Notes: generated by a model from the sequence alone, not told the origin. Shown: positions 2,230-12,521, counted from the first letter of the stretch. The stretch: DNA of 15,848 bases from Armatimonadota bacterium (GCA_043754515.1 JAYUUO010000066.1:1-15848); one strand, 5' to 3'. Made by a program: numbers and translations.

Positions 2230-2985
2230 CTATGGCTTTTCGGCGACGAACAGCAACCGGTCCGACTTCGGGCCTGGCGTTCGCTCGCCGTAGTTGCCGT
2301 ACACAGACACATTGATCAGGCCCGCCTCCGCTAGCATTTCGCGTAGTTCCGTGGTCGTATATGCCCGCTGGAGGTGCGTTTCGTGGAACTGGCGCGCCTC
2401 GCCCGTCTGTTCGTCGCGCAGGGTGAACGCCATCTCGACGCGGCAGATGCGCGACTCGCGATCCCAGAACGACTGCCAGACATGACGCAGTGGGCCCGAT
2501 TCGGCAGTCTGTGTGAACAGGTCGTGGGACAGCGCGTAGAGCGAGTTGACGTCGAACGCGAACACCCCGCCCGGGTGAAGGTGGCGGGCGATTCGCACGA
2601 ATGCCTGCGCCAGGTCGGCGGGGTCGGTGATGTAGTTGAGCGAGTCGAAAAGGCTGACCGCGAGATCGAAGCGCGCGGCACCCAGGTCCAGAGTCGCCGC
2701 GTTTTGCACCGTGTAAGCGATCTCGCCCGCGAACCCGCGCGCGTCCGCTTTAACTCGCGCGATCTGAATCATTGAGGCCGACAGGTCAATCCCGACCACG
2801 GGTCGGTAGCCGTGCTGGTACAGGAGTTCGGTCACGATGCCGGTCCCGCACGCGACGTCGAGGGCGGAACGGGGCGTCTTGCCGCGTCGGGCGCATTCTG
2901 ACTCGATCCGGCGCAACCAGATTTCGTGCGGCACGCCGCTCATCAGCGCATCATAGATCGGGGCGACTTCGAGGTAACTAGGCAT
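2230..2985 (-). CDS. Class I SAM-dependent methyltransferase
   Basis: 251 aa; N-terminal APIYDALM, motif I LDVACGTG, VVGIDLSASMI, FDLAVSLFDSLNY, HLHPGGVFAFDV, C-terminal ETHLQRAY. Confidence 0.92.
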   Translation of the reverse strand: MPSYLEVAPIYDALMSGVPHEIWLRRIESECARRGKTPRSALDVACGTGIVTELLYQHGYRPVVGIDLSASMIQIARVKADARGFAGEIAYTVQNAATLDLGAARFDLAVSLFDSLNYITDPADLAQAFVRIARHLHPGGVFAFDVNSLYALSHDLFTQTAESGPLRHVWQSFWDRESRICRVEMAFTLRDEQTGEARQFHETHLQRAYTTTELREMLAEAGLINVSVYGNYGERTPGPKSDRLLFVAEKP

Positions 2986-3044
2986 TGGTAGAGAACGGCA
3001 CCGCCGCGTCCCTCTTTCTATCGCATAACGCGCGACGAATCACT

Positions 3045-6000
3045 CTACTTGTCCCCACGCGCCGCGCCGACCGCCTCGTCGAATGTCATCGCCCGCCCCT
3101 CCGCTTCGGCGTGGGCGATCTCGGACGGCGACAGCACCTGACGCCAGCCATTCCCGCCAGCCGTGAGGGCGCGGTCGCGCACTTCCGTGGGCAACAACGG
3201 GGCACCGCTTTCGGCAACGATCCGATCCGCGGCGGCGAATAGGCGGACCGCCTGTGTAGCCTGCCCCTTGCGCGCGGCGACCGCCGCGGCGGTCGCGAGG
3301 AGGTTGGCAACGAGGCGCGGGTTCTCCATCGGCACGGCGATATCCAGGCCCTCCCGGATACGGACGAGAGCCTGATCCGGCGCGTTCTGCTGGAGCGCGA
3401 GCGTCGCCTGATTGAGCAGAATGCAAACCGCGCCGTAGCAGTCTTTTCCCGTAAGTAGCCATGGCAATGCCTCTTCGTAATGGTCGCGTGCTCGGTCGAA
3501 GTCGCCCTGCTCGTGGGCTACCGCGCCGAGGTTGAGTAGCGCGGTGCCGACAAATTCGTCCCGGTGCCATTCGCGGGCTAGCGTGAGGGCGCGCAGGAAT
3601 CGCGCGGACGCGGCGGCGAGATCGCCCCGCTCTAAGGCAACCGTGCCCCGCGTCCCCGCGCACCGCAGGGCTTTGACGCGCTCGCCCAGCGTCTCGAATA
3701 GTGCGCCCGCCCCGGCGAGTGCCTCGTCCGCCTCGGCCAGCCGCCCCAGCCGGTATGCCGTAAAACCCGATAGGTACAACGCTTCGGCGAGAACAAGAAC
3801 CGCCGCGTCATCCCCCGGCACTCCCCCCGCCGTGTCGTGATAGCGTACGATCCCCGCCGCTAATAACTGATTGATCGGTATGTGGAGACCGCGCCAACTC
3901 CAATACCCTTCCAGGCAGATCAATATCGTCAGGGCGGCGGTGGCGTTCGCCAGCGCATCCCCACCCGCGTCTCCGATGAGATGCGTAAACGCCGCCACGC
4001 AGTTCTCCTCGTCGGCGCGGAAGTGCGCCTGTGCCGCCGCGTCCGTGGCTTTGCCTCGCGCCTCGCGCGTCGCGGCGACGAAAAACGCGGCGTGTCGGTC
4101 CGCCGTCTCCCGCCGCGCCCGCGCGTCCTCCGCGAGTTTCTCCAGGCCCCATTCCCGGACCGGCTCAAGTAGGCGAAACCGCGCCGCGCGCTCGTCCGCC
4201 GACGGAACCTGCTGCACCAGGGAATGCTCCTGAAGGCGGGCCAGTGCGTCCGCGCTGTCTTCTTCGCCCGTTACCGCCTCCGCGGCCGCGAGCGTCCACC
4301 CCCCGCGAAACACCGAGAGTCGGGCGAGAAAGGGGCGTAGTTCCGGTTCCAGCAGTTCCCACCCCCACTCGAGCGCGGCACGCAGGCTACGGTGACGCGC
4401 GGGCAGGTCGCGGCGGCGGCTGTGCAGGTCATGGGAGCGACCTTCCAGACGCTCGACGATCTGCGCTGGCGCGAGGGTACGCACCCACGCACCGGCCATT
4501 TCGAGCGCGAGCGGCAACCCCTCCAGACTGCGGCAGATCGCGCAAACGGCGGTGGCATTGCCGACTGTTAGCACGAAGTCGGGTCGCACCGAGCGTGCCC
4601 GGTCGAGGAACAGGGCAACACTCGACACCTCCTCCAGCGTGCCAATAGCGAGGGAGGAGGGGTGCGCGGGCAATGTGGCGGGCGGCACGGCAAGCGGCGC
4701 GAGTGGGAACTCCTGCTCCCCCCCTATGCCGCAAACCCTGCGCGAGGTGGCGACAACCATCAGTCTCGGTAGCCGTTCGAGCAACAGGCGTAGCAACGCG
4801 GGAATCCTCCCCCCTTCCGGCGCGCCGCCGACCAGCAAATGCTCCAGATTATCGAGGATCAGAACGCCGTCCGTGCGTAACCGCTCCGCGCCGCTAGTAG
4901 GCGTAGACATCGCGAATGGGTCGTCCTCCGCGCCAATGCCGAGTGCCTGCTGGAGTAGCGGAAGGAAAAAACGTCCGTCAGAAACGTCCGCGAGCGGGAT
5001 GTAAAACAGTTCGCGGCGGGGCTTTGATGTCGCGAGGCGTTCGGCGAGTGCGAGGACGAACCGCGTCTTCCCGACGCCGCCGACCCCGGTGATTGTGATT
5101 AATCGGGGGCGGGCGGGCGCGTCGTCCTCCGGGTCGCAGAGCGCGGCGATCCGGTCGAGCTCCGCGTCGCGCCCCCAGAGCCGGTTCAGAGCCGGTGGCA
5201 CCGGGGGGAACCTTGTCGGCGTCATAGTAATCACCGTTTCCGCCGATGCCTCCGTCGGCGGCGCGGCGGGGTCGGGCACCGCTATCGGTTCGTCACCGCT
5301 CTGCCGGGCCATCTCGGGTAGGCGTTCGCGTAGCGCGACCAGGGCGCGCGACGGCCCGCACCCCAGTTCGCGCGTGAGGAGCACGGAGAACTTGTCGAAC
5401 ACCGCCACCGCCGCCGTGACCTGCCCATCCGCCGCGCGTAGTCGCATCTCGGTCTGGTAGGAAGCCTCGTTATACGGGTCCGCCTGCCGCGCCCGTCCTA
5501 TTGTCGCCAGTGCCGCCGCATCGTCCCCGGCGAGACGTTGCGCCTCGGCGAGCGCGGCGAGAGCGGTGTGACACCGCTCGCCGAGCCGCGCCTGCTCGCC
5601 GAGAACCCACTCCTCGTAGATGTCCGGCAAGAGCGGCGCGGGGTACAGCGCGATGGCGGCTTCGAGCGCGGCGCGGCGCGCCGTCGGCATGGGAGAGCGA
5701 GCATCGGGCGCATCGAGCAACCGCTCGAACGCCGCCACGTCCACCGACGTCGCGTCCGTATTGAGCCAGACCCCGGCGCGGTCCGCCAGCATGATTTCCG
5801 CGGACGTTCCGCCGCACGCCGTGCCTTGAGGCGCGAAATGACGGCGCAGTGACGACAGACAACCGCTCAGGTTGTCGCGCCCCGCGTCGAGGGGCAGATC
5901 GGGCCAGAACAGCTCGATCAGGGCCTCGCGCGCATGGCGGCGGGGGAAGAGCGACATATATGCCAGAAGTAGCGCGGTCTTCCGGGTGCGGAAGCGAGTG

Positions 6001-6134
6001 ACTACCGCTCCGTCCGGCGTGGTCACGCGCAAACCGTCGAACAGCGCGATTTGATAGCCGTTGTATTGAGGTCCGGTGGTTCCCGTATAGTCTTTTCTCT
6101 CACTCACATCTCTTATTTGCCCGTCGCGGGGCAT
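3045..6134 (-). CDS. AfsR/SARP-family transcriptional regulator: wHTH + BTAD + NB-ARC/STAND ATPase + TPR
   Basis: N-terminal IALFDGLRV...FRTRKTALLLAYM...REALIELFWPD (OmpR-type wHTH); BTAD (SVDVAAFE, EEWVLGEQARL, DPYNEASYQTEMRL, RELGCGPS); Walker A GVGGVGKT; Walker B LILDNLEHL; GLPLALEMA; C-terminal TPRs (ALLNLGAVAHEQGDFDRARDHYEEAL). Start is likely ATG 6134 or GTG 6107; the ORF-track extension to 6431 overlaps the divergent gene. Confidence 0.92.
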   Translation of the reverse strand: MPRDGQIRDVSERKDYTGTTGPQYNGYQIALFDGLRVTTPDGAVVTRFRTRKTALLLAYMSLFPRRHAREALIELFWPDLPLDAGRDNLSGCLSSLRRHFAPQGTACGGTSAEIMLADRAGVWLNTDATSVDVAAFERLLDAPDARSPMPTARRAALEAAIALYPAPLLPDIYEEWVLGEQARLGERCHTALAALAEAQRLAGDDAAALATIGRARQADPYNEASYQTEMRLRAADGQVTAAVAVFDKFSVLLTRELGCGPSRALVALRERLPEMARQSGDEPIAVPDPAAPPTEASAETVITMTPTRFPPVPPALNRLWGRDAELDRIAALCDPEDDAPARPRLITITGVGGVGKTRFVLALAERLATSKPRRELFYIPLADVSDGRFFLPLLQQALGIGAEDDPFAMSTPTSGAERLRTDGVLILDNLEHLLVGGAPEGGRIPALLRLLLERLPRLMVVATSRRVCGIGGEQEFPLAPLAVPPATLPAHPSSLAIGTLEEVSSVALFLDRARSVRPDFVLTVGNATAVCAICRSLEGLPLALEMAGAWVRTLAPAQIVERLEGRSHDLHSRRRDLPARHRSLRAALEWGWELLEPELRPFLARLSVFRGGWTLAAAEAVTGEEDSADALARLQEHSLVQQVPSADERAARFRLLEPVREWGLEKLAEDARARRETADRHAAFFVAATREARGKATDAAAQAHFRADEENCVAAFTHLIGDAGGDALANATAALTILICLEGYWSWRGLHIPINQLLAAGIVRYHDTAGGVPGDDAAVLVLAEALYLSGFTAYRLGRLAEADEALAGAGALFETLGERVKALRCAGTRGTVALERGDLAAASARFLRALTLAREWHRDEFVGTALLNLGAVAHEQGDFDRARDHYEEALPWLLTGKDCYGAVCILLNQATLALQQNAPDQALVRIREGLDIAVPMENPRLVANLLATAAAVAARKGQATQAVRLFAAADRIVAESGAPLLPTEVRDRALTAGGNGWRQVLSPSEIAHAEAEGRAMTFDEAVGAARGDK

Positions 6135-6168
6135 ATTTCCTACCGGATTCGGCCTGAACGGGAAAAAA

Positions 6169-6215
6169 TTGCTCGGAGTGTTGCTCGGAAATCGCTCGGA
6201 GTTGCCTCGTATCAT
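6169..6215 (+). promoter_or_regulatory. Putative SARP-activated promoter: three GCTCGGA direct repeats followed by a TATCAT -10 box
   Basis: GCTCGGA at 6171, 6183 and 6194 (TTGCTCGGA, TTGCTCGGA, TCGCTCGGA; period 12 then 11 bp), covering the -35 region. TATCAT at 6210-6215 lies 8-9 bp after the last repeat. It sits in the intergenic gap next to the SARP gene. Confidence 0.7.
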
Positions 6216-6262
6216 GTGCGCGGGGTGTCCGGCGGCAAATCCCGAGCACCGTGTACAACCCG

Positions 6263-6268
6263 AAGGAG
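6263..6268 (+). promoter_or_regulatory. Shine-Dalgarno (AAGGAG) of the PEP-CTERM gene
   Basis: AAGGAG lies 8 nt upstream of ATG 6277. Confidence 0.75.
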
Positions 6269-6276
6269 TAACCCAT

Positions 6277-7248
6277 ATGACATCACTCGTTTCCCATGCC
6301 AGTCCGCGTCTCGTGGTCGCTGTTCTTGCCGTCGCCCTTTCCGCCGCCACCGCGCGGGCGCAGACCACACTGTTCCAAACCGGCTTCGAGGCGACGCAAG
6401 GCTTTAGTACCACTGTCGCGAGACCGATCACTATTTACACCGCGACCGGAACTCCCGTCCTGTTCACACCTACCCCCGGAACACTGTACGATCAAGTCGC
6501 TCCGAACGATGTTTATGGGTTCTTCTCCCCGAACACGTCGAGTGCCACCTTACAAAGTGCCGTGAATGGCGTCCGCGTCGTCAGTAACTCGGCGGCGAGC
6601 GGCACCCAATCCGTGCTATTCGATGGCACCGTTCTCGGCGCGCAGGACGTGCGCTACTCTGAAGGGAAGAGTTACAGCGTCGGGACGAACGGCGTGTTCA
6701 ACGTCGGAGTGGACATGCGTGTCTCCAACCCCAGCGCGAGCTACGGGCAGTGGGGTATAAACCTGCTTTCGCAGAACACGGGCGGCGGTTTTACCAGTGT
6801 CGCATTGGGGTTCGTCGCCGGTAGTATGCTCGCCTCGCCCGACGGCGGTGCCAGCCTGTATGCCGCGCTCAATCCGAACACCGGTGCCCCTATTGCCGCG
6901 TCCTACGGCGTCTACAACAACTACGCGATCCAGATGAACTACGCGGCGCGTGTGTTCGGCGCGACCTTCAACGGTGCGCCGGTGGGTTTCGTGCCGGTGG
7001 ACGCGGGCGGCAATCCCATCGGTAACCCGGTCGCCGCGATCCCGTTTAGCCCCGCCGCCCTGAACCGCATAGATTATGTCTCGTTCGGTCAGGTGCTACC
7101 CCGCGGCACGAGCGAGTCCGCCAACTTTGATAACCTGCGCGTGTCCGGTACCAATGTCACTGTCGTTCCCGAGGCGGGAACGCTCGCCCTCGTATTCCCC
7201 GCGCTCGGCCTGATCGGTGCCGTAGTCGCCGCCCGACGCCGCGAATAA
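6277..7248 (+). CDS. Secreted PEP-CTERM (exosortase-target) surface protein with a probable beta-sandwich domain
   Basis: 323 aa from ATG 6277. Sec signal peptide ending ATARA/QTT; Gly/Asn/Ser/Thr-rich body with QTGFE near the start and FDNLRV near the end; C-terminal VPEAGT + hydrophobic helix LALVFPALGLIGAVVAA + basic tail RRRE. Confidence 0.88.
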   Translation: MTSLVSHASPRLVVAVLAVALSAATARAQTTLFQTGFEATQGFSTTVARPITIYTATGTPVLFTPTPGTLYDQVAPNDVYGFFSPNTSSATLQSAVNGVRVVSNSAASGTQSVLFDGTVLGAQDVRYSEGKSYSVGTNGVFNVGVDMRVSNPSASYGQWGINLLSQNTGGGFTSVALGFVAGSMLASPDGGASLYAALNPNTGAPIAASYGVYNNYAIQMNYAARVFGATFNGAPVGFVPVDAGGNPIGNPVAAIPFSPAALNRIDYVSFGQVLPRGTSESANFDNLRVSGTNVTVVPEAGTLALVFPALGLIGAVVAARRRE

Positions 7249-7292
7249 AGCCGCCCGCGTATTTCTACACCGACATACACAAAGGAAAACCT

Positions 7293-8216
7293 ATGATACT
7301 CATCGCTCACCCGATCTTTCGCCGCGTCAAGCACTCCGCTTTCACCCTGATCGAGTTGCTCGTCGTGATCGCCATTATCGCCTTGCTCGCCGCGATTTTA
7401 TTTCCCGTCTTCGCCCAGGCCCGCGAGAAGGCCCGCCAGACCTCGTGCGGCTCGAATGTTCGCCAGCTCGGAATTGCTACCCTCGCCTATGTGCAGGACT
7501 TCGACGAGACATACCCGCTCGCGAATTACACCCCGAACGGTGATATGACCGGTGCCAGCAACGCCACCTGGCAGGTTCTTGTCGATCCGTACATCAAGGC
7601 GAACTTCCCCGGTGTTGTCGCCTCCGCCACCCCGGATAAAGTCACCAGCATCTTCGCCTGTCCCAGCATTGACAACTCCGGGCGCGACAACGGCACGCCT
7701 AACTACCGCCCCGCGCTTTCTTACGTGGCGAACCGCTATCTGTTCGGTACCTATGCGCTGGATATATCGGACGCCCGGCGTAATCCGTCGCTGACGATTG
7801 GCGATGTGAGTGAGGTGACGCGAATGGTGGTGTTCGCTGAATCGCGCGGCAACTGTGTTTACACCGACGGGGTAGACAATGTGACGGACTTCAACGACAC
7901 ATCTCACGGACTGAACCCCGACGCGCAACCCTGCTCGGTGGAATACGTCACCGGGCGCGCCCGGCACAGCGGCGGCACGAACTACGGCTTTGCCGACGCA
8001 CATGTCAAATGGGTACGGGCACCAGGTAAGAACTTCGACGGCGACGCTAGGGCGACGATCACGCCGGGCAACGCCAGTGATTACGGCGCGATCACGCCGT
8101 ACCCCAACCCCAAAGGAGTGGTGTACCGCCAGTCGGAGTATCCGGGCGCGGTAGGATTCTTCGTGGAGGACGACGCGAAAGCGGTTCCCTCGCTTGTTGG
8201 CATTCCCCTCCTGTGA
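7293..8216 (+). CDS. Prepilin-type N-terminal cleavage/methylation domain protein, DUF1559 / H-X9-DG family
   Basis: RRVKHSA/FTLIELLVVIAIIALLAAILFPVFAQAREKARQTSCGSNVRQLG...YVQDFDE, IFACPS, C-terminal RHSGGTNYGFADAHVKW. SD-like AAGGA lies upstream. Confidence 0.93.
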   Translation: MILIAHPIFRRVKHSAFTLIELLVVIAIIALLAAILFPVFAQAREKARQTSCGSNVRQLGIATLAYVQDFDETYPLANYTPNGDMTGASNATWQVLVDPYIKANFPGVVASATPDKVTSIFACPSIDNSGRDNGTPNYRPALSYVANRYLFGTYALDISDARRNPSLTIGDVSEVTRMVVFAESRGNCVYTDGVDNVTDFNDTSHGLNPDAQPCSVEYVTGRARHSGGTNYGFADAHVKWVRAPGKNFDGDARATITPGNASDYGAITPYPNPKGVVYRQSEYPGAVGFFVEDDAKAVPSLVGIPLL

Positions 8217-8341
8217 TCGCGGACGCCGCGCTCTGGGCGCGGTTCGCGGCGTGGCCGACTCCGGGCTATGATCGTCTCGGCGAGTCCAGTCACCGGGTCA
8301 GGCCGGAACGCCGTCGGGGTGATTCGAGTATCATGAACTGT

Positions 8342-8373: not shown

Positions 8374-8529
8374 GCGTGATTATTTGACCACGGGGCGCGG
8401 GGATAAATACGCTATGTAAGCCGTCATCCTACGATAGGCGAATTCGGTGATTTTGCCGTATAGTGTACAGGTATACGAGGGCGGACTGACCTCCGTGGTC
8501 GTCTCTCTCTTTTAACCCTGCGAGTGTTT

Positions 8530-10002
8530 ATGACCGATAAGCCTTCTTCCCGACGGAGCGGAATTAAAACGGCCGTTCCCGCGTCCACCGCGACGCGTTC
8601 GGCGGGCGCGAGCACGCGCTCCAAGATCGAGCACGAGCGACGTGAGCGTCAAATCTCCGCGCTGTATGAGTTGTGGCGGGCACTGCCACAGACCGAGTCG
8701 TCGCGCCTTCTACAGATGGTCGCCGAACGCGCCACGGTGACGATGGACGCCCACACTTGCTCCCTCCTGCTTCGCGAGCGTGGCGGCGACACTCTGCGCG
8801 TGGCCGCGTCGGTTGGCCTTCCCGCCGACGTCACGGAATCGGTAACCATGCTCGTCGGCGAGAAGATCGCCGGGCGTGTCGCCGCGTCGGGACAGGGGAT
8901 TCTCGTCAACAAAGACCCGCGCCAGCACCCGGTTCTGCGCGAGGGCGGCGACGCGCCCGACATTACCCCGCGTCCGAACGTCGAATCCGCGCTCTGTGCC
9001 CCGCTCGTCGCCATGGACGGCGGCATCGTCGGCGTCTTATGTCTATCGCGCCACGCACCCGCCCTGCCCTTCACCGAAGGCGATCTGCGCATGTTCTCAT
9101 TGTTCGCCGCGCAAGCCGGTGCCGTGATCACGCAGACGCGCACCGTGGACGATCTTACCCGCGCGGGGCAAGAGAACGCGGACATGGAGCGCGAGGTGGA
9201 GCGGACGGCGAGTCTGGCGGCACTCGGGCAACTCGCCGCCTCGGTCGCGCATGAACTGCGCAACCCGCTGTCCTCGATCAAGGGCGCGGCGCAGTTCCTG
9301 CTGGCGGAGTTCGAGGACGAGGCCGCGCCGGTGACGTCGGAGCAGATCGGCACCCTGCGCGATTTCCTGGGGATCGTGGTGGAGGAGGTGGACGGCCTCG
9401 GCTCACTGACCACCGATCTGTTAGAGTTCGCGCGCCCGACGCCGCCCGAACGCGTCCGGCGCGACCTACGCGAGATCGTCCAGCACGAGATCGGGTTCCT
9501 AACCCCCGAACTGGAGCGGATGGGAGTGTCACGCATCGAGGAAGTGATCGCGCTGACGAACCCGGCGTGGGTCGAGGCGGACGGGGCGCAACTCGGCGGC
9601 GTGCTCCGCAACCTGCTCCTGAACGCGGCGCAAGCGATGACGAACTCGAGCGGCGTTTCCAGCAACAATGTCGTCACCGTCACCCTGCAACGCACGGCGG
9701 AAGGTGCGCAGGCGATGTACGCCGTGGTGGTCGAGGACAACGGGCCGGGGGTGCCCGCTCCGCTCCTCCCGCATCTATGGGAGCCGTTTTTCACCACGAA
9801 AGCCCGCGGGACCGGTCTCGGACTCGCGCAAGTGAAACGCGTCGTGACCGCGCACGGCGGTAGCGTGTCGGTCGAGAACATCCGTACGGGCGGCGCACGG
9901 TTTAAGTTCACCCTGCCCGCGATTGATGTCGGCCGCGAACCGCGTCCCGCGCTGTATCCATCCATCGCCGCCGCGCTGTCCGGAAGCGCGCCCGCCCGTT
10001 GA
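8530..10002 (+). CDS. Cytoplasmic GAF-domain sensor histidine kinase (GAF-HisKA-HATPase)
   Basis: GAF (CSLLL, GEKIAGRVAASG, SALCAPL, IVGVLCL, FTEGDLRMFSLFAAQA); H-box AHELRNPLSSIKG; N-box NLLLNAAQA; G1 EDNGPG; F-box EPFFTTK; G2 GTGLGLA. No transmembrane segment seen. Confidence 0.95.
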   Translation: MTDKPSSRRSGIKTAVPASTATRSAGASTRSKIEHERRERQISALYELWRALPQTESSRLLQMVAERATVTMDAHTCSLLLRERGGDTLRVAASVGLPADVTESVTMLVGEKIAGRVAASGQGILVNKDPRQHPVLREGGDAPDITPRPNVESALCAPLVAMDGGIVGVLCLSRHAPALPFTEGDLRMFSLFAAQAGAVITQTRTVDDLTRAGQENADMEREVERTASLAALGQLAASVAHELRNPLSSIKGAAQFLLAEFEDEAAPVTSEQIGTLRDFLGIVVEEVDGLGSLTTDLLEFARPTPPERVRRDLREIVQHEIGFLTPELERMGVSRIEEVIALTNPAWVEADGAQLGGVLRNLLLNAAQAMTNSSGVSSNNVVTVTLQRTAEGAQAMYAVVVEDNGPGVPAPLLPHLWEPFFTTKARGTGLGLAQVKRVVTAHGGSVSVENIRTGGARFKFTLPAIDVGREPRPALYPSIAAALSGSAPAR

Positions 10003-10035
10003 AATTACCGTCTTTAATTCCCGCGCGGGTGGGGG

Positions 10036-11484
10036 ATGGCGCAGGTAAACCAGACCACCGTGACGAATAGTAACTCCGTTATGGCAACAGTCCGCTCGAC
10101 CGCTCCCAGTCCTAGAGAACGAACTCCGGGTGTTACACCGCCCCGCGACAGGCCGTATCCGTTCGCCGCGTCGCCCGCGAAAGCGGCGGAGGAGGACGCC
10201 CCCCCGACCGCCCGCGTCGCCCCCGACCCCTTGTCTCCCACGGGTCCGACGGTGATGATAGTGGACGACGAGCCGAACATCCGTCGCGTACTCGCCGCTG
10301 TTCTCACCCGCGACGGCTACCAGGTGATCCTCGCCGATGGCGGCAAGGACGCGGTGAAGAAGGCGAAGAACGAGCCGATCCTAGATGTCCTGATTACCGA
10401 CTTCCTGATGCCAGATATGAACGGGCTGGAAACGCTCGAAGCCGTCCGCAAATACCACGGAGGCATCCGCGTTCTGTTCATCTCGGGCCACGGCACTGTT
10501 CGTTCGGCGGTCGAGGCGATGCGCCTCGGCGCGTTCGACTACATCACCAAGCCGTTCGATGTCGAGCAGGTCCGCGACGCGGTGAAGCGTGCGTTGAAGT
10601 CCGCGCCGCTCTACGCGCCCGCGCCGATTTCAGTAAAATTGAGTGACTCCACTTCCCCCGCGTCCGAAAGTGACACGCCCGGTGGCGAGGCGGAGGCACC
10701 AATTATTCTTCCCACATCTGTGTCCATGATCGGTGCCGCCCCGGCGACGTGCCTCCTGCAACGCCGATTGCTCGCCGCCGCCGCCTCCCGCGCCACGGTG
10801 CTACTGCTGGGGGAGTCGGGCACTGGCAAAGAGGTCGCGGCGAAGCTGATCCATGAGGCGTCGCCGCGTCGCCGGGGTCCGTTCATCGCGGTCTCGTGCG
10901 CCGCGCTCCCCGAAACCCTGCTGGAGTCCGAGCTATTCGGGCATGAGAAGTCCGCGTTCACCGGCGCGGCGAGTGCCAAGCCGGGCCGCTTCGAGCTTGC
11001 GGACGGCGGCACACTGTTCCTCGACGAAATCGGCGATATCCCGCACATCACCCAGGTCAAACTGCTCCGCGCCCTCCAGGAGCGGGAAATATCGCGCATC
11101 GGCGGGGTGAAAACGATCCGCGTTGACGTGCGCGTGGTCGCGGCGACGAACCGCGATCTGTGGCAGGCGGTGCAGGAAGGTTCGTTCCGCCTCGACCTGT
11201 ACTACCGGCTGCACGTCGTCCCTGTCACCCTCCCGCCGTTACGTGACCGTGCGGACGACATCCCCGCGCTAGCCGCGTTCTTCCTGAATTGCTCGGCGAA
11301 AGAGAACGATCGCGTGTTCCCTGGCGGCGTTTCCCCCGAGGCACTCGCCGTGCTCCGGGCGCACGACTGGCAGGGTAACATCCGCGAGCTACAGAATGCG
11401 CTCGAATACGCCGTGGTCATGTCGCCGCCGCGACGCCGCGCCATCGAGGCCGACGCGCTCCCCGACCGCGTCGCCGGACGATAA
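10036..11484 (+). CDS. NtrC/AtoC-family sigma54-dependent response regulator lacking a C-terminal HTH
   Basis: Receiver (VMIVDDE, ITDFLMPDMNG, ISGHG, YITKPF); AAA+ with Walker A GESGTGKE, ESELFGHEKSAFTGA, Walker B LFLDEIG, R-finger FRLDLYYRL, sensor II WQGNIRELQN. Ends at DALPDRVAGR*. Start could also be ATG 10081. Confidence 0.93.
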   Translation: MAQVNQTTVTNSNSVMATVRSTAPSPRERTPGVTPPRDRPYPFAASPAKAAEEDAPPTARVAPDPLSPTGPTVMIVDDEPNIRRVLAAVLTRDGYQVILADGGKDAVKKAKNEPILDVLITDFLMPDMNGLETLEAVRKYHGGIRVLFISGHGTVRSAVEAMRLGAFDYITKPFDVEQVRDAVKRALKSAPLYAPAPISVKLSDSTSPASESDTPGGEAEAPIILPTSVSMIGAAPATCLLQRRLLAAAASRATVLLLGESGTGKEVAAKLIHEASPRRRGPFIAVSCAALPETLLESELFGHEKSAFTGAASAKPGRFELADGGTLFLDEIGDIPHITQVKLLRALQEREISRIGGVKTIRVDVRVVAATNRDLWQAVQEGSFRLDLYYRLHVVPVTLPPLRDRADDIPALAAFFLNCSAKENDRVFPGGVSPEALAVLRAHDWQGNIRELQNALEYAVVMSPPRRRAIEADALPDRVAGR

Positions 11485-11726: not shown

Positions 11727-12521
11727 TCAGGGAGCTATCCGTAGTGCGCTGCCGTCGGCAACGAAACTCGGCTTCCGGACGGGAGCCGCGAAGACTACGG
11801 TGGTCCCCCCGGCGAGCGACAACTTGGTTCGCGCGATGCGCACACGCAGGTCGCGCCATACCTTCACGATGGCACCCGCGACGGCTGCCGATCCGATAGG
11901 GACCGGTCCGAGCACCAGCGTGTCCGTTCGCGCGTCGCGCGTTAGCACCAGCAGATCGCCCTCCCGAAATCCGGACTGCTCGATCAGGTTGCGTGGCACC
12001 GCGAGCGCGCCGTCGCGCCGGAACGCGCCCCGCGTCCGCGCCGGGGACGGCTTCCCCCACGCGGTCGCGCCGCTCCCGCCGATAACAGCCGCGCCGACCA
12101 TGCCCTGTAGCGCGGCTCCCGCGAGAGGGGACAGCGGCATCCCGGCGGGCACCACGTCGTCGAGCGGGCGGGCGCGATCCGTCGGCACCGGGGGCAGGGC
12201 GTTCTGCGCGTCCCCGACGTAGTCCGACGCCGTTTGCCCGATTTGTCGGTACAGGTACGCCTGCGCGGAGCCGTCGGGGGTGGAAACGGCGATCAGCTCG
12301 CGGGCGTAGCCGAACGCGGTCATGCCGCCGCCCGCGTATAGGCCGCGCACCACGGCGGATACTTCGCGGTGCCGCACGGGGAAACTCTTCGCCTTGAGCG
12401 TGTTGCTGATGTCGAGCGCGGTGAACGACTCGCCCGTGTTCATTTTCGACTCCATCGCGCTGGTGGCGAGTGTCAGAATCGCTTCGGATTCGGTCATGGT
12501 TCGTACGGTATACGGGTTCAT
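11727..12521 (-). CDS. Hypothetical protein: N-terminal wHTH-like region plus C-terminal AbrB/MazE/SpoVT-like repeats
   Basis: 264 aa with protein-like composition and GAGG 9 nt before ATG 12521 (alternative ATG 12497). N-terminal FTALDISNTLK...VRHREVSAVVRGLY; C-terminal RRDGALAVPRNLIEQSGFREGDLLVL (AbrB-like) and a second VKVWRDLRVRIARTKL segment. Confidence 0.7.
   Translation of the reverse strand: MNPYTVRTMTESEAILTLATSAMESKMNTGESFTALDISNTLKAKSFPVRHREVSAVVRGLYAGGGMTAFGYARELIAVSTPDGSAQAYLYRQIGQTASDYVGDAQNALPPVPTDRARPLDDVVPAGMPLSPLAGAALQGMVGAAVIGGSGATAWGKPSPARTRGAFRRDGALAVPRNLIEQSGFREGDLLVLTRDARTDTLVLGPVPIGSAAVAGAIVKVWRDLRVRIARTKLSLAGGTTVVFAAPVRKPSFVADGSALRIAP

Follow-up and report, generated by a model that had tools for sequence, protein, structure and literature searches.

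A large SARP/STAND regulator and a putative 11-bp repeat box before a PEP-CTERM-type surface-protein gene in an Armatimonadota bacterium

The 15,848-nucleotide stretch of Armatimonadota DNA analysed here (GCA_043754515.1, JAYUUO010000066.1:1-15848; hereafter the window) places the gene for an AfsR-like regulator head-to-head with genes for a PEP-CTERM-type surface protein and a DUF1559 prepilin-type protein, which raises the question of what the regulator controls and whether the three genes form a unit. A preliminary description proposed a recurring, self-contained cassette in which the regulator switches on the two exported proteins as partners. We consider it probable, from the sequence of the locus and of its relatives, that the adjacent AfsR-type regulator binds three GCTCGGA repeats in the gap between the divergent genes and switches on the PEP-CTERM-type gene and likely the DUF1559 gene. 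These repeats, which the preliminary description overlooked, are the best evidence for this wiring. The feature that recurs among relatives is the pairing of a regulator with a box, mostly before exported proteins, and not the set of three genes. The genes and promoter elements are as follows.

3045..6134, minus strand: large SARP/STAND regulator of 1029 amino acids, ordered winged helix-turn-helix, BTAD, STAND ATPase, TPR (ATG at 6134; alternative GTG start at 6107)
6170..6203, plus strand: SARP-type box, three GCTCGGA repeats (units 6170-6180, 6182-6192 and 6193-6203)
6210..6215, plus strand: predicted -10 hexamer TATCAT, 6 nt after the last repeat unit, as in the afs box
6263..6268, plus strand: ribosome-binding site AAGGAG, from the sequence
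6277..7248, plus strand: exported PEP-CTERM-type protein of 323 amino acids (signal-like N-terminus, jelly roll, VPEAG-TM-RRR tail at 7165-7245)
7249..7292, plus strand: 44-bp spacer (ribosome-binding site AAGGA at 7282-7286, no terminator-like site)
7293..8216, plus strand: DUF1559 prepilin-type protein of 307 amino acids (SA/FTLIE site, H-X9-D-A motif)

Throughout, G000 denotes the genome holding the window, C-numbers its contigs, G001 and so on its relatives, and L-numbers loci in these relatives. The gene order, strands and gaps first described all hold: 142 bp separate the regulator from the PEP-CTERM gene, and the 44-bp gap before the DUF1559 gene contains a ribosome-binding site and shows neither a terminator-like site nor an unusually stable fold (z -1.1). 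Near-identical contigs from four other studies span the regulator–PEP junction in three runs and the PEP–DUF junction in one, so the three-gene layout is not an assembly artefact.

The three GCTCGGA units in the 142-bp gap are direct repeats with a pitch of 12 and 11 bp, and the last 11-bp unit stops 6 nt short of TATCAT. The afs box of AfsR consists of two 11-bp direct repeats at -40 to -19 that overlap a poor -35 element (PMC10936776). The window box stands in the afs-box register, since both are made of 11-bp repeats ending 6 nt before the -10 hexamer, and this geometry makes it very likely that the regulator drives the divergent promoter, as had been proposed. Promoters were scored for a tandem 11-bp unit followed after 5-8 nt by TANNNT, within 300 bp upstream of 4414 G000 genes (rough gene calls), using hexamer weights trained on 18 promoters from relatives. 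The window promoter ranks 3/4414 (17.2 versus a 99th percentile of 9.2) and is joint first (2/4414) on an untrained score with a fixed spacer; 0/5000 dinucleotide shuffles matched it on either score. The GCTCGGA tandem occurs once in G000, in the window, and in 3/70 other genomes, the same number as its reversed control; of these three outside occurrences one falls within a coding sequence, one precedes an unrelated gene and one has no gene call. High scorers in G000 are rich in PEP-CTERM genes (7/59 versus 39/4355, p 2e-6) and are not enriched for DUF1559 genes (1 of 68).

The regulator itself carries the following elements.

5841..5882, minus strand: predicted recognition helix of the winged helix-turn-helix, residues 85-98, GRDNLSGCLSSLRR (alignment with relatives; model helix H57-75)
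5322..5744, minus strand: BTAD domain, residues 131-271 (Pfam PF03704, 59 bits versus a cut-off of 22, E 7e-16)
5064..5087, minus strand: Walker A GVGGVGKT, residues 350-357 (motif pattern)
3195..3797, minus strand: TPR region, about residues 780-980, predicted sensor (TPR_12 at 863-933, TPR_MalT at 780-890)

TPR_12 passes its Pfam cut-off and the TPR_MalT match is weak. The NB-ARC label originally given to the ATPase stands in part. The motifs by which STAND ATPases are recognised are intact (Walker A at 350, Walker B VLILDNLE at 424, sensor-1 VVATSR at 460 and GLPLA at 539), whereas Pfam returned no NB-ARC (PF00931) or Trans_reg_C match at E<=0.01, and its NACHT, AAA_16 and AAA_22 matches all fall under the cut-off. 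C-terminal repeats generally serve STAND proteins as sensors, and by analogy the TPR region is predicted to do so here. A single-sequence search of the PDB with the regulator retrieved designed TPR proteins only, AfsR and EmbR surfacing through profile and fold: a profile of the N-terminal regions of 93 relatives matches both from position 2-3 to 246-252 (E 4e-28 to 1e-26), and the AlphaFold model of the N-terminal 255 residues (predicted local distance difference test, pLDDT, 94.5) superposes on them with template modelling (TM) scores of 0.77-0.79. The modelled region has the SARP fold, with an N-terminal OmpR-type winged helix-turn-helix followed by BTAD, and the helix at residues 85-98 would correspond to AfsR alpha3 (PMC10936776). 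Members of the regulator family are found in 39/41 genomes, with up to 33 matches each and a best relative 41% identical; BTAD is above cut-off in 113/121 genomes of the phylum. G000 holds about 10 such regulators; a SARP N-terminus is present in 7 regulators of this genome.

Boxes accompany relatives of the regulator as well. From the 150 matches listed of 612, 98 regions, mostly matching at the N-terminus, were taken for a census of 99 regulators; two extra regions picked for a PEP-CTERM homologue were kept out of the counts. With a score of at least 9.2 taken as a box, 25/99 regulators have one at an adjacent promoter, compared with 5/330 other promoters in the same loci, and two of these five control boxes front tandem DUF1559 genes within a regulator's own cluster. 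Boxes are found at 22/67 downstream and 3/53 divergent promoters, and beside 22/62 of the closest and 3/37 of the more distant regulators. The 25 boxed targets include 15 DUF1559 proteins and 5 proteins with a signal peptide (assigned heuristically); of the remainder, a few resemble chance hits. A DUF1559 gene lies directly downstream of 18/87 regulators versus a background of 48/4234; on the untrained score, 13/18 of these DUF-linked promoters pass versus 8/330. All 18 regulators are among the 62 closest and 15 sit in one clade (support 0.99), so the excess represents a few events. In this DUF-linked clade, exported thioredoxin-domain proteins were found in 8/8 cases tested. The clade usually continues past DUF1559 with such a protein and DUF2283, and a module of SARP-STAND regulator, box, DUF1559, and exported thioredoxin-domain protein and/or DUF2283 is kept in both families of the order (L070, L072, L076, L078, L089, L096, L097, L107, L108, L109 and others).

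The similarity of boxes tracks that of the recognition helices (rho 0.57, 0/5000 permutations, n=27), a link that the permutation values overstate because the census relatives are not independent. The correlation persists with ATPase-region identity removed (partial rho 0.52), and boxes within one genome are no more alike than boxes between genomes (3.75 versus 4.02). The repeat unit varies from one regulator to another, reading for example GTTAGGA at L090 and TTGGGAG at L097. Units with ACG or ATG accompany Arg or Lys at position 6 of the helix, and units with GG or GAG accompany Ser, Asn, Cys or Thr at this position; the exceptions are L161 and L171, both weak low-complexity cases. The window regulator fits this rule with Ser6 and CTCGGA, as does its sister regulator on G000 C213 with Arg and CTCACG. 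In other families (40 regions, 37 regulators), one regulator passes the strict cut-off and five pass 7.5, compared with 2/137 controls at the strict cut-off; all 5/5 boxed regulators obey the position-6 rule (R with ..CG, S with ..AG/GG). Among these families, one xSLRVAL regulator stands beside TGTAACG and another beside GTAGCG. The DNA sites of many such regulator/box pairs appear predictable from protein sequence. The TGTAACG box of L212 belongs to a further regulator–box–PEP-CTERM unit.

Several other observations weigh against the proposed wiring. No adjacent box was found for 74/99 census regulators, nor for 36/37 in the other families at the strict cut-off. The window box reaches only 2.3 (about the 90th percentile) on a sequence matrix derived from the 18 DUF-linked promoters, and would therefore be recognised by geometry and not by a family consensus; this matrix, which yielded no strong site in G000, was dropped for sequence-free scores. 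OmpR/PhoB-type proteins produce the same 11-bp geometry, and TTAACA repeats stand before other DUF1559 genes of G000. It had been predicted in advance that the TGTAACG box belongs to C254-like regulators, and this came true only in part: both regulators flanked by the box have R6 but only one has S4, neither of the two comes nearest to the C254 regulator of G000 named beforehand, and five census regulators with similar helices have no such box. Finally, the three homologues of the PEP-CTERM protein come from one genus, where the regulator has another build (463-482 residues plus a separate ATPase/repeat gene) and the boxes score low, reaching 3.0 by the repeat score and 1.2-7.5 by the matrix.

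The PEP-CTERM protein had been described as an exosortase target, which holds for its architecture and not at the level of curated models. Its N-terminal signal peptide was judged by eye from the sequence, its VPEAG-TM-RRR tail is the variant usual in G000 (our own hidden Markov model, E 2e-9), and G000 encodes exosortases (3 PF09721 matches above cut-off); against this, there is no Pfam match, no TIGR02595 or PF07589 match above cut-off and only a weak NF038126 match (E 0.006). Its homologues are named PEP-CTERM sorting proteins and two carry PF07589; the genus name Armatimonas among the homologues points to an armatimonad as the source. The predicted structure (pLDDT 80) is a ConA/lectin-type beta jelly roll whose best matches, TtX122, Cip1, legume lectins and polysaccharide lyases (TMq 0.3-0.43), indicate the fold of the model and no function. 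Homologues were found in 3/70 other genomes, all of one other, Armatimonas-type genus; each of the three lies head-to-head with a SARP-type gene, and the next gene behind it is another PEP-CTERM gene or an unrelated one, never DUF1559. Closer homologues (P0011-P0014) are 43-71% identical; scans of metagenome and genome contigs for further contexts yielded either nothing or distant proteins, with no SARP neighbour in 8 metagenome loci. In L175, L176 and L181, a short SARP-ATPase gene (463-482 amino acids) is followed by a gene for a 1017-1042-residue ATPase with a predicted membrane helix and a repeat tail, and is divergent from PEP-CTERM genes, of which L175 and L176 have 3-4 in a row; in all three loci, inverted TTGCCTTAAA repeats lie directly against the regulator start codon.

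The identity of the second exported protein as a prepilin-processed DUF1559 protein was upheld: its class III signal and DUF1559 domain pass four curated models (PF07596 for DUF1559, PF07963 for N_methyl, TIGR02532 and TIGR04294), its motif being H-X9-D-A and not H-X9-D-G, and G000 contains a prepilin peptidase. Its three closest relatives, 48-60% identical, lie inside ssuD-DUF1559-ssuA-ssuC operons that include neither regulator nor box, and the window protein clusters with them (support 0.997), apart from the SARP-linked DUF clade. From this clustering we infer that it comes from sulfonate-uptake operons. G000 has no close ssuD or ssuA, the best matches being 28-29% identical. In L178, L179 and L180 (G001:C445, G003:C508 and G010:C70), a DUF1559 gene lies within ssuD-ssuA-ssuC-ssuB sulfonate operons, and its presence there in three genomes is a direct lead to the function of one DUF1559 subfamily. 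ESM Atlas returned unnamed clusters together with DUF6645 and DUF6772, as leads only.

The block had been described as self-contained, and the flanking genes agree: those for a methyltransferase and a kinase adjoin directly, with no block between them, in G001, G002 and G014 out of five relatives searched, which identifies the three-gene block as an insertion.

2986..8300, strand not applicable: insertion, approximate extent, between methyltransferase (2230-2985) and histidine kinase (8524-10002)

In G003 the flanking genes are on separate contigs, and in G011 the kinase was not found at the cut-off. The ends of the insertion are not sharply defined, with no target-site duplication and no att-like repeat found at them. 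In relatives, an intergenic region lies before the methyltransferase gene; in the window (2230-3044) the insertion separates the two, and the gene starts 59 bp past the regulator stop and may be read through from the regulator gene. The kinase/NtrC-type pair at 8524-11484 was ruled out as part of the module, since it belongs to the ancestral locus and is of sigma-54 type. Its NtrC-type regulator (10036-11484) combines a receiver with a sigma-54 ATPase domain, stops at residue 482 just past the AAA lid and shows no C-terminal HTH_8 match in Pfam. A 264-residue protein at 11727-12521 (minus strand) has no Pfam or NCBIfam match. As first described, the locus holds no biosynthetic cluster (0 biosynthetic genes among 13 window proteins scanned with Pfam).

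In AfsR, the SARP domain is kept inactive by the NOD and TPR parts as long as ATP is not bound (PMC10936776). The ATPase/TPR part of the window regulator would likewise keep it off until an inducer and ATP release the SARP domain. As modelled on AfsR, two SARP domains would then occupy consecutive 11-bp repeats across the -35 region, and the regulator loaded in this way would bring RNA polymerase to a promoter that lacks a good -35. The regulator may also be autoregulatory, because the box lies 36-69 bp before its own start. Both cargo genes would be on one transcript, recently combined, with no contact between their products required; exosortase would sort the exported PEP-CTERM protein, and prepilin peptidase would process the DUF1559 protein. 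The signal is a matter for conjecture: a cytoplasmic nutrient fragment, for example a sugar or sulfonated sugar, is suggested by the lectin-like cargo and the uptake-operon origin of its DUF1559 protein, and we put it forward as the best, though doubtful, candidate.

Another signal could act through the same wiring if the regulator were an NLR-like threat sensor that remodels the surface in response to phage, predator or envelope damage, which is the main alternative and which we regard as unlikely. Avs/NACHT systems are among the STAND immune sensors. The inclusion of immune sensors among STAND proteins (PMC10936776), the expansion and fast divergence of the regulator family described above, and the exported thioredoxin-domain proteins of the DUF-linked clade would suit such a role, but the cargo fold and origin point to nutrient capture, and the block showed no defence genes, although no search against PADLOC was made.

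The preliminary description expected the regulator, PEP-CTERM and DUF1559 genes to recur together as a conserved module of partners. Locally, the 44-bp spacing with a ribosome-binding site and no terminator, the joint absence of the three genes from the empty site in relatives, and the junctions kept in near-identical strains from other studies are all compatible with this. Among relatives the expectation fails: the triad was found beside 0/99 census regulators and 0/37 in other families, and PEP-CTERM followed by DUF1559 occurs in 1/53 G000 cases versus a background of 48/4234. Of 92 census regulators with a visible upstream gene, one has a divergent PEP-CTERM gene, a frequency indistinguishable from background (17/4270, p 0.32), and two have a divergent DUF1559 gene. 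Co-phylogeny of regulator and cargo is weak (rho 0.27, p 0.09, 17 pairs). Together with the other followers of the three PEP homologues and the grouping of the window DUF1559 protein with ssu-operon proteins, these counts make a conserved partnership improbable. The idea that relatives' regulators stand beside variable cargo proved right, most of it being exported proteins. Besides the window, the gene divergent from the G000 C150 regulator encodes a PEP-like tail and has a weak box.

Slightly more improbable still is a distantly encoded reader of the repeats, either an OmpR/PhoB-type response regulator or another SARP paralogue, with the neighbour a bystander or acting on distant genes. G000 does contain apparent trans regulons, with TGTAACG before six genes that have no adjacent regulator and TTAACA before several DUF1559 genes, and the box of the C213 regulator is also present at two distant genes. 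The window repeat, in contrast, is unique in G000 and lies inside the inserted block together with the regulator, and L090, whose helix is the most similar, has the most similar box among the eight nearest helices (6/9). That members of three expanded families came together by chance, without any regulatory connection, might be suggested by the copy numbers in G000 (about 10 such regulators, 60-70 PEP-CTERM genes with an estimate of about 67, and 70-80 DUF1559/prepilin genes with an estimate of about 77) and by the lack of enrichment of divergent PEP-CTERM genes among regulators. It is highly improbable in view of the box, which is in register and unique in G000, and of the site that stands empty in three relatives. 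Control of the divergent promoter by the adjacent regulator remains the reading that we prefer.

Other tandem boxes were noted in G000. TTAACA repeats with an 11-bp pitch precede DUF1559 genes at C30:13097, C51:4065, C51:5718, C112:20311 and C218:2499, and a sixth, assigned by position only, at C180:161. They resemble Bacillus-type Pho boxes, and the DUF1559 pilins behind them possibly form a phosphate-starvation set. The TGTAACGNTGC tandem box precedes four PEP-CTERM and two lipoprotein-like genes (C15:12456, C168:1986, C216:15024, C216:18146, C229:22135 and C254:6854), where no regulator is adjacent; its pattern is present in 17/71 genomes of the order versus 4 for the reversed control, often before similar exported proteins, and the C246 or C254 regulators are candidate owners. 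The box of the C213 regulator (C213:13535) recurs before a distant exported protein and a PEP-CTERM gene (C28:1706 and C287:10124), a recurrence of sequence that suggests action in trans. At C169:7740-8762, a regulator is followed by a GTTAGG tandem box, a 79-residue exported peptide and a 229-residue gene product with a LuxR-like tail, judged by eye.

As a wider and tentative picture, to which we give slightly less than even chances, Armatimonadota may run much of their surface proteome through NLR-like SARP-STAND paralogues, each with its own 11-bp box specified by a helix code and each switching mix-and-match sets of PEP-CTERM, DUF1559 and lipoprotein genes in cis or in trans. If this is true, the helix code would allow the regulons of DUF1559 and PEP-CTERM proteins, and with them the conditions that induce these proteins, to be read from sequence alone. 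These are among the largest unexplained families of these bacteria, and an activator with a readable site offers a direct handle on them, the more so as the isolated SARP domain of AfsR is active without its sensor (PMC10936776). The family would also extend AfsR-type activation well beyond actinomycetes and supply a natural set of orthogonal regulator/box pairs and orphan TPR sensors. The locus by itself is a modest finding, and the value lies in the family-wide code. In full-text searches that did not extend to most subscription journals, BTAD/SARP regulators were not found linked to PEP-CTERM or DUF1559 genes.

Among known systems, AfsR of Streptomyces coelicolor (PDB 8K60/8HVR/8JKE) shares with the window regulator the SARP-NOD-TPR layout, the size (993 versus 1029 amino acids), the SARP fold and direct repeats of 11 bp that stop 6 nt short of the -10 hexamer (PMC10936776). 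It differs in sequence (about 21% identity) and phylum, in its targets, which are afsS or antibiotic control as opposed to the exported or surface proteins predicted here, and in number, the window-type regulators existing as many paralogues, each with its own box. SARPs are found mainly in actinomycetes and AfsR is a global, not a pathway-specific, regulator (PMC10936776), and SARPs are treated within biosynthetic clusters in PMC10663231. The winged helix-turn-helix and BTAD fold is shared with EmbR of Mycobacterium tuberculosis (PDB 2FEZ, TM 0.79), which ends in FHA (PMC10936776). The window regulator ends instead in a STAND ATPase and TPRs. EmbR controls cell-wall genes (embCAB), a non-antibiotic cell-envelope target. 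The suggestion that SARPs are put to a different use here is partly true, in view of the global role of AfsR and the cell-wall targets of EmbR.

MalT of Escherichia coli and other LAL-type activators resemble the window regulator in their STAND class (PMC10936776) and through the weak TPR_MalT match. The window regulator differs in its DNA-binding domain, an N-terminal OmpR-type winged helix-turn-helix with BTAD. MalT has a C-terminal LuxR helix-turn-helix and undergoes ligand- and ATP-gated activation through a TPR-like sensor. The XrtA/PEP-CTERM system, of sigma-54/NtrC type, relies on PrsK/PrsR and the PEP-CTERM box (TIGR02915). There, too, PEP-CTERM genes share an element, repeated upstream of each, that singles them out for common regulation, whereas the window-type 11-bp tandem boxes stand at sigma-70-like promoters with SARPs as predicted readers. 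OmpR/PhoB boxes such as the pho box have an 11-bp pitch over the -35 region and are read by two-component response regulators; in contrast, a Pfam scan found no OmpR-type receiver gene in the window. Set beside these systems, the window regulator has the structure and the promoter of a large SARP, and binding and activation are likely by analogy with AfsR. The kind of regulator is already known, and what is new is the predicted use of large-SARP/STAND activators for surface-protein genes in Armatimonadota-like bacteria.

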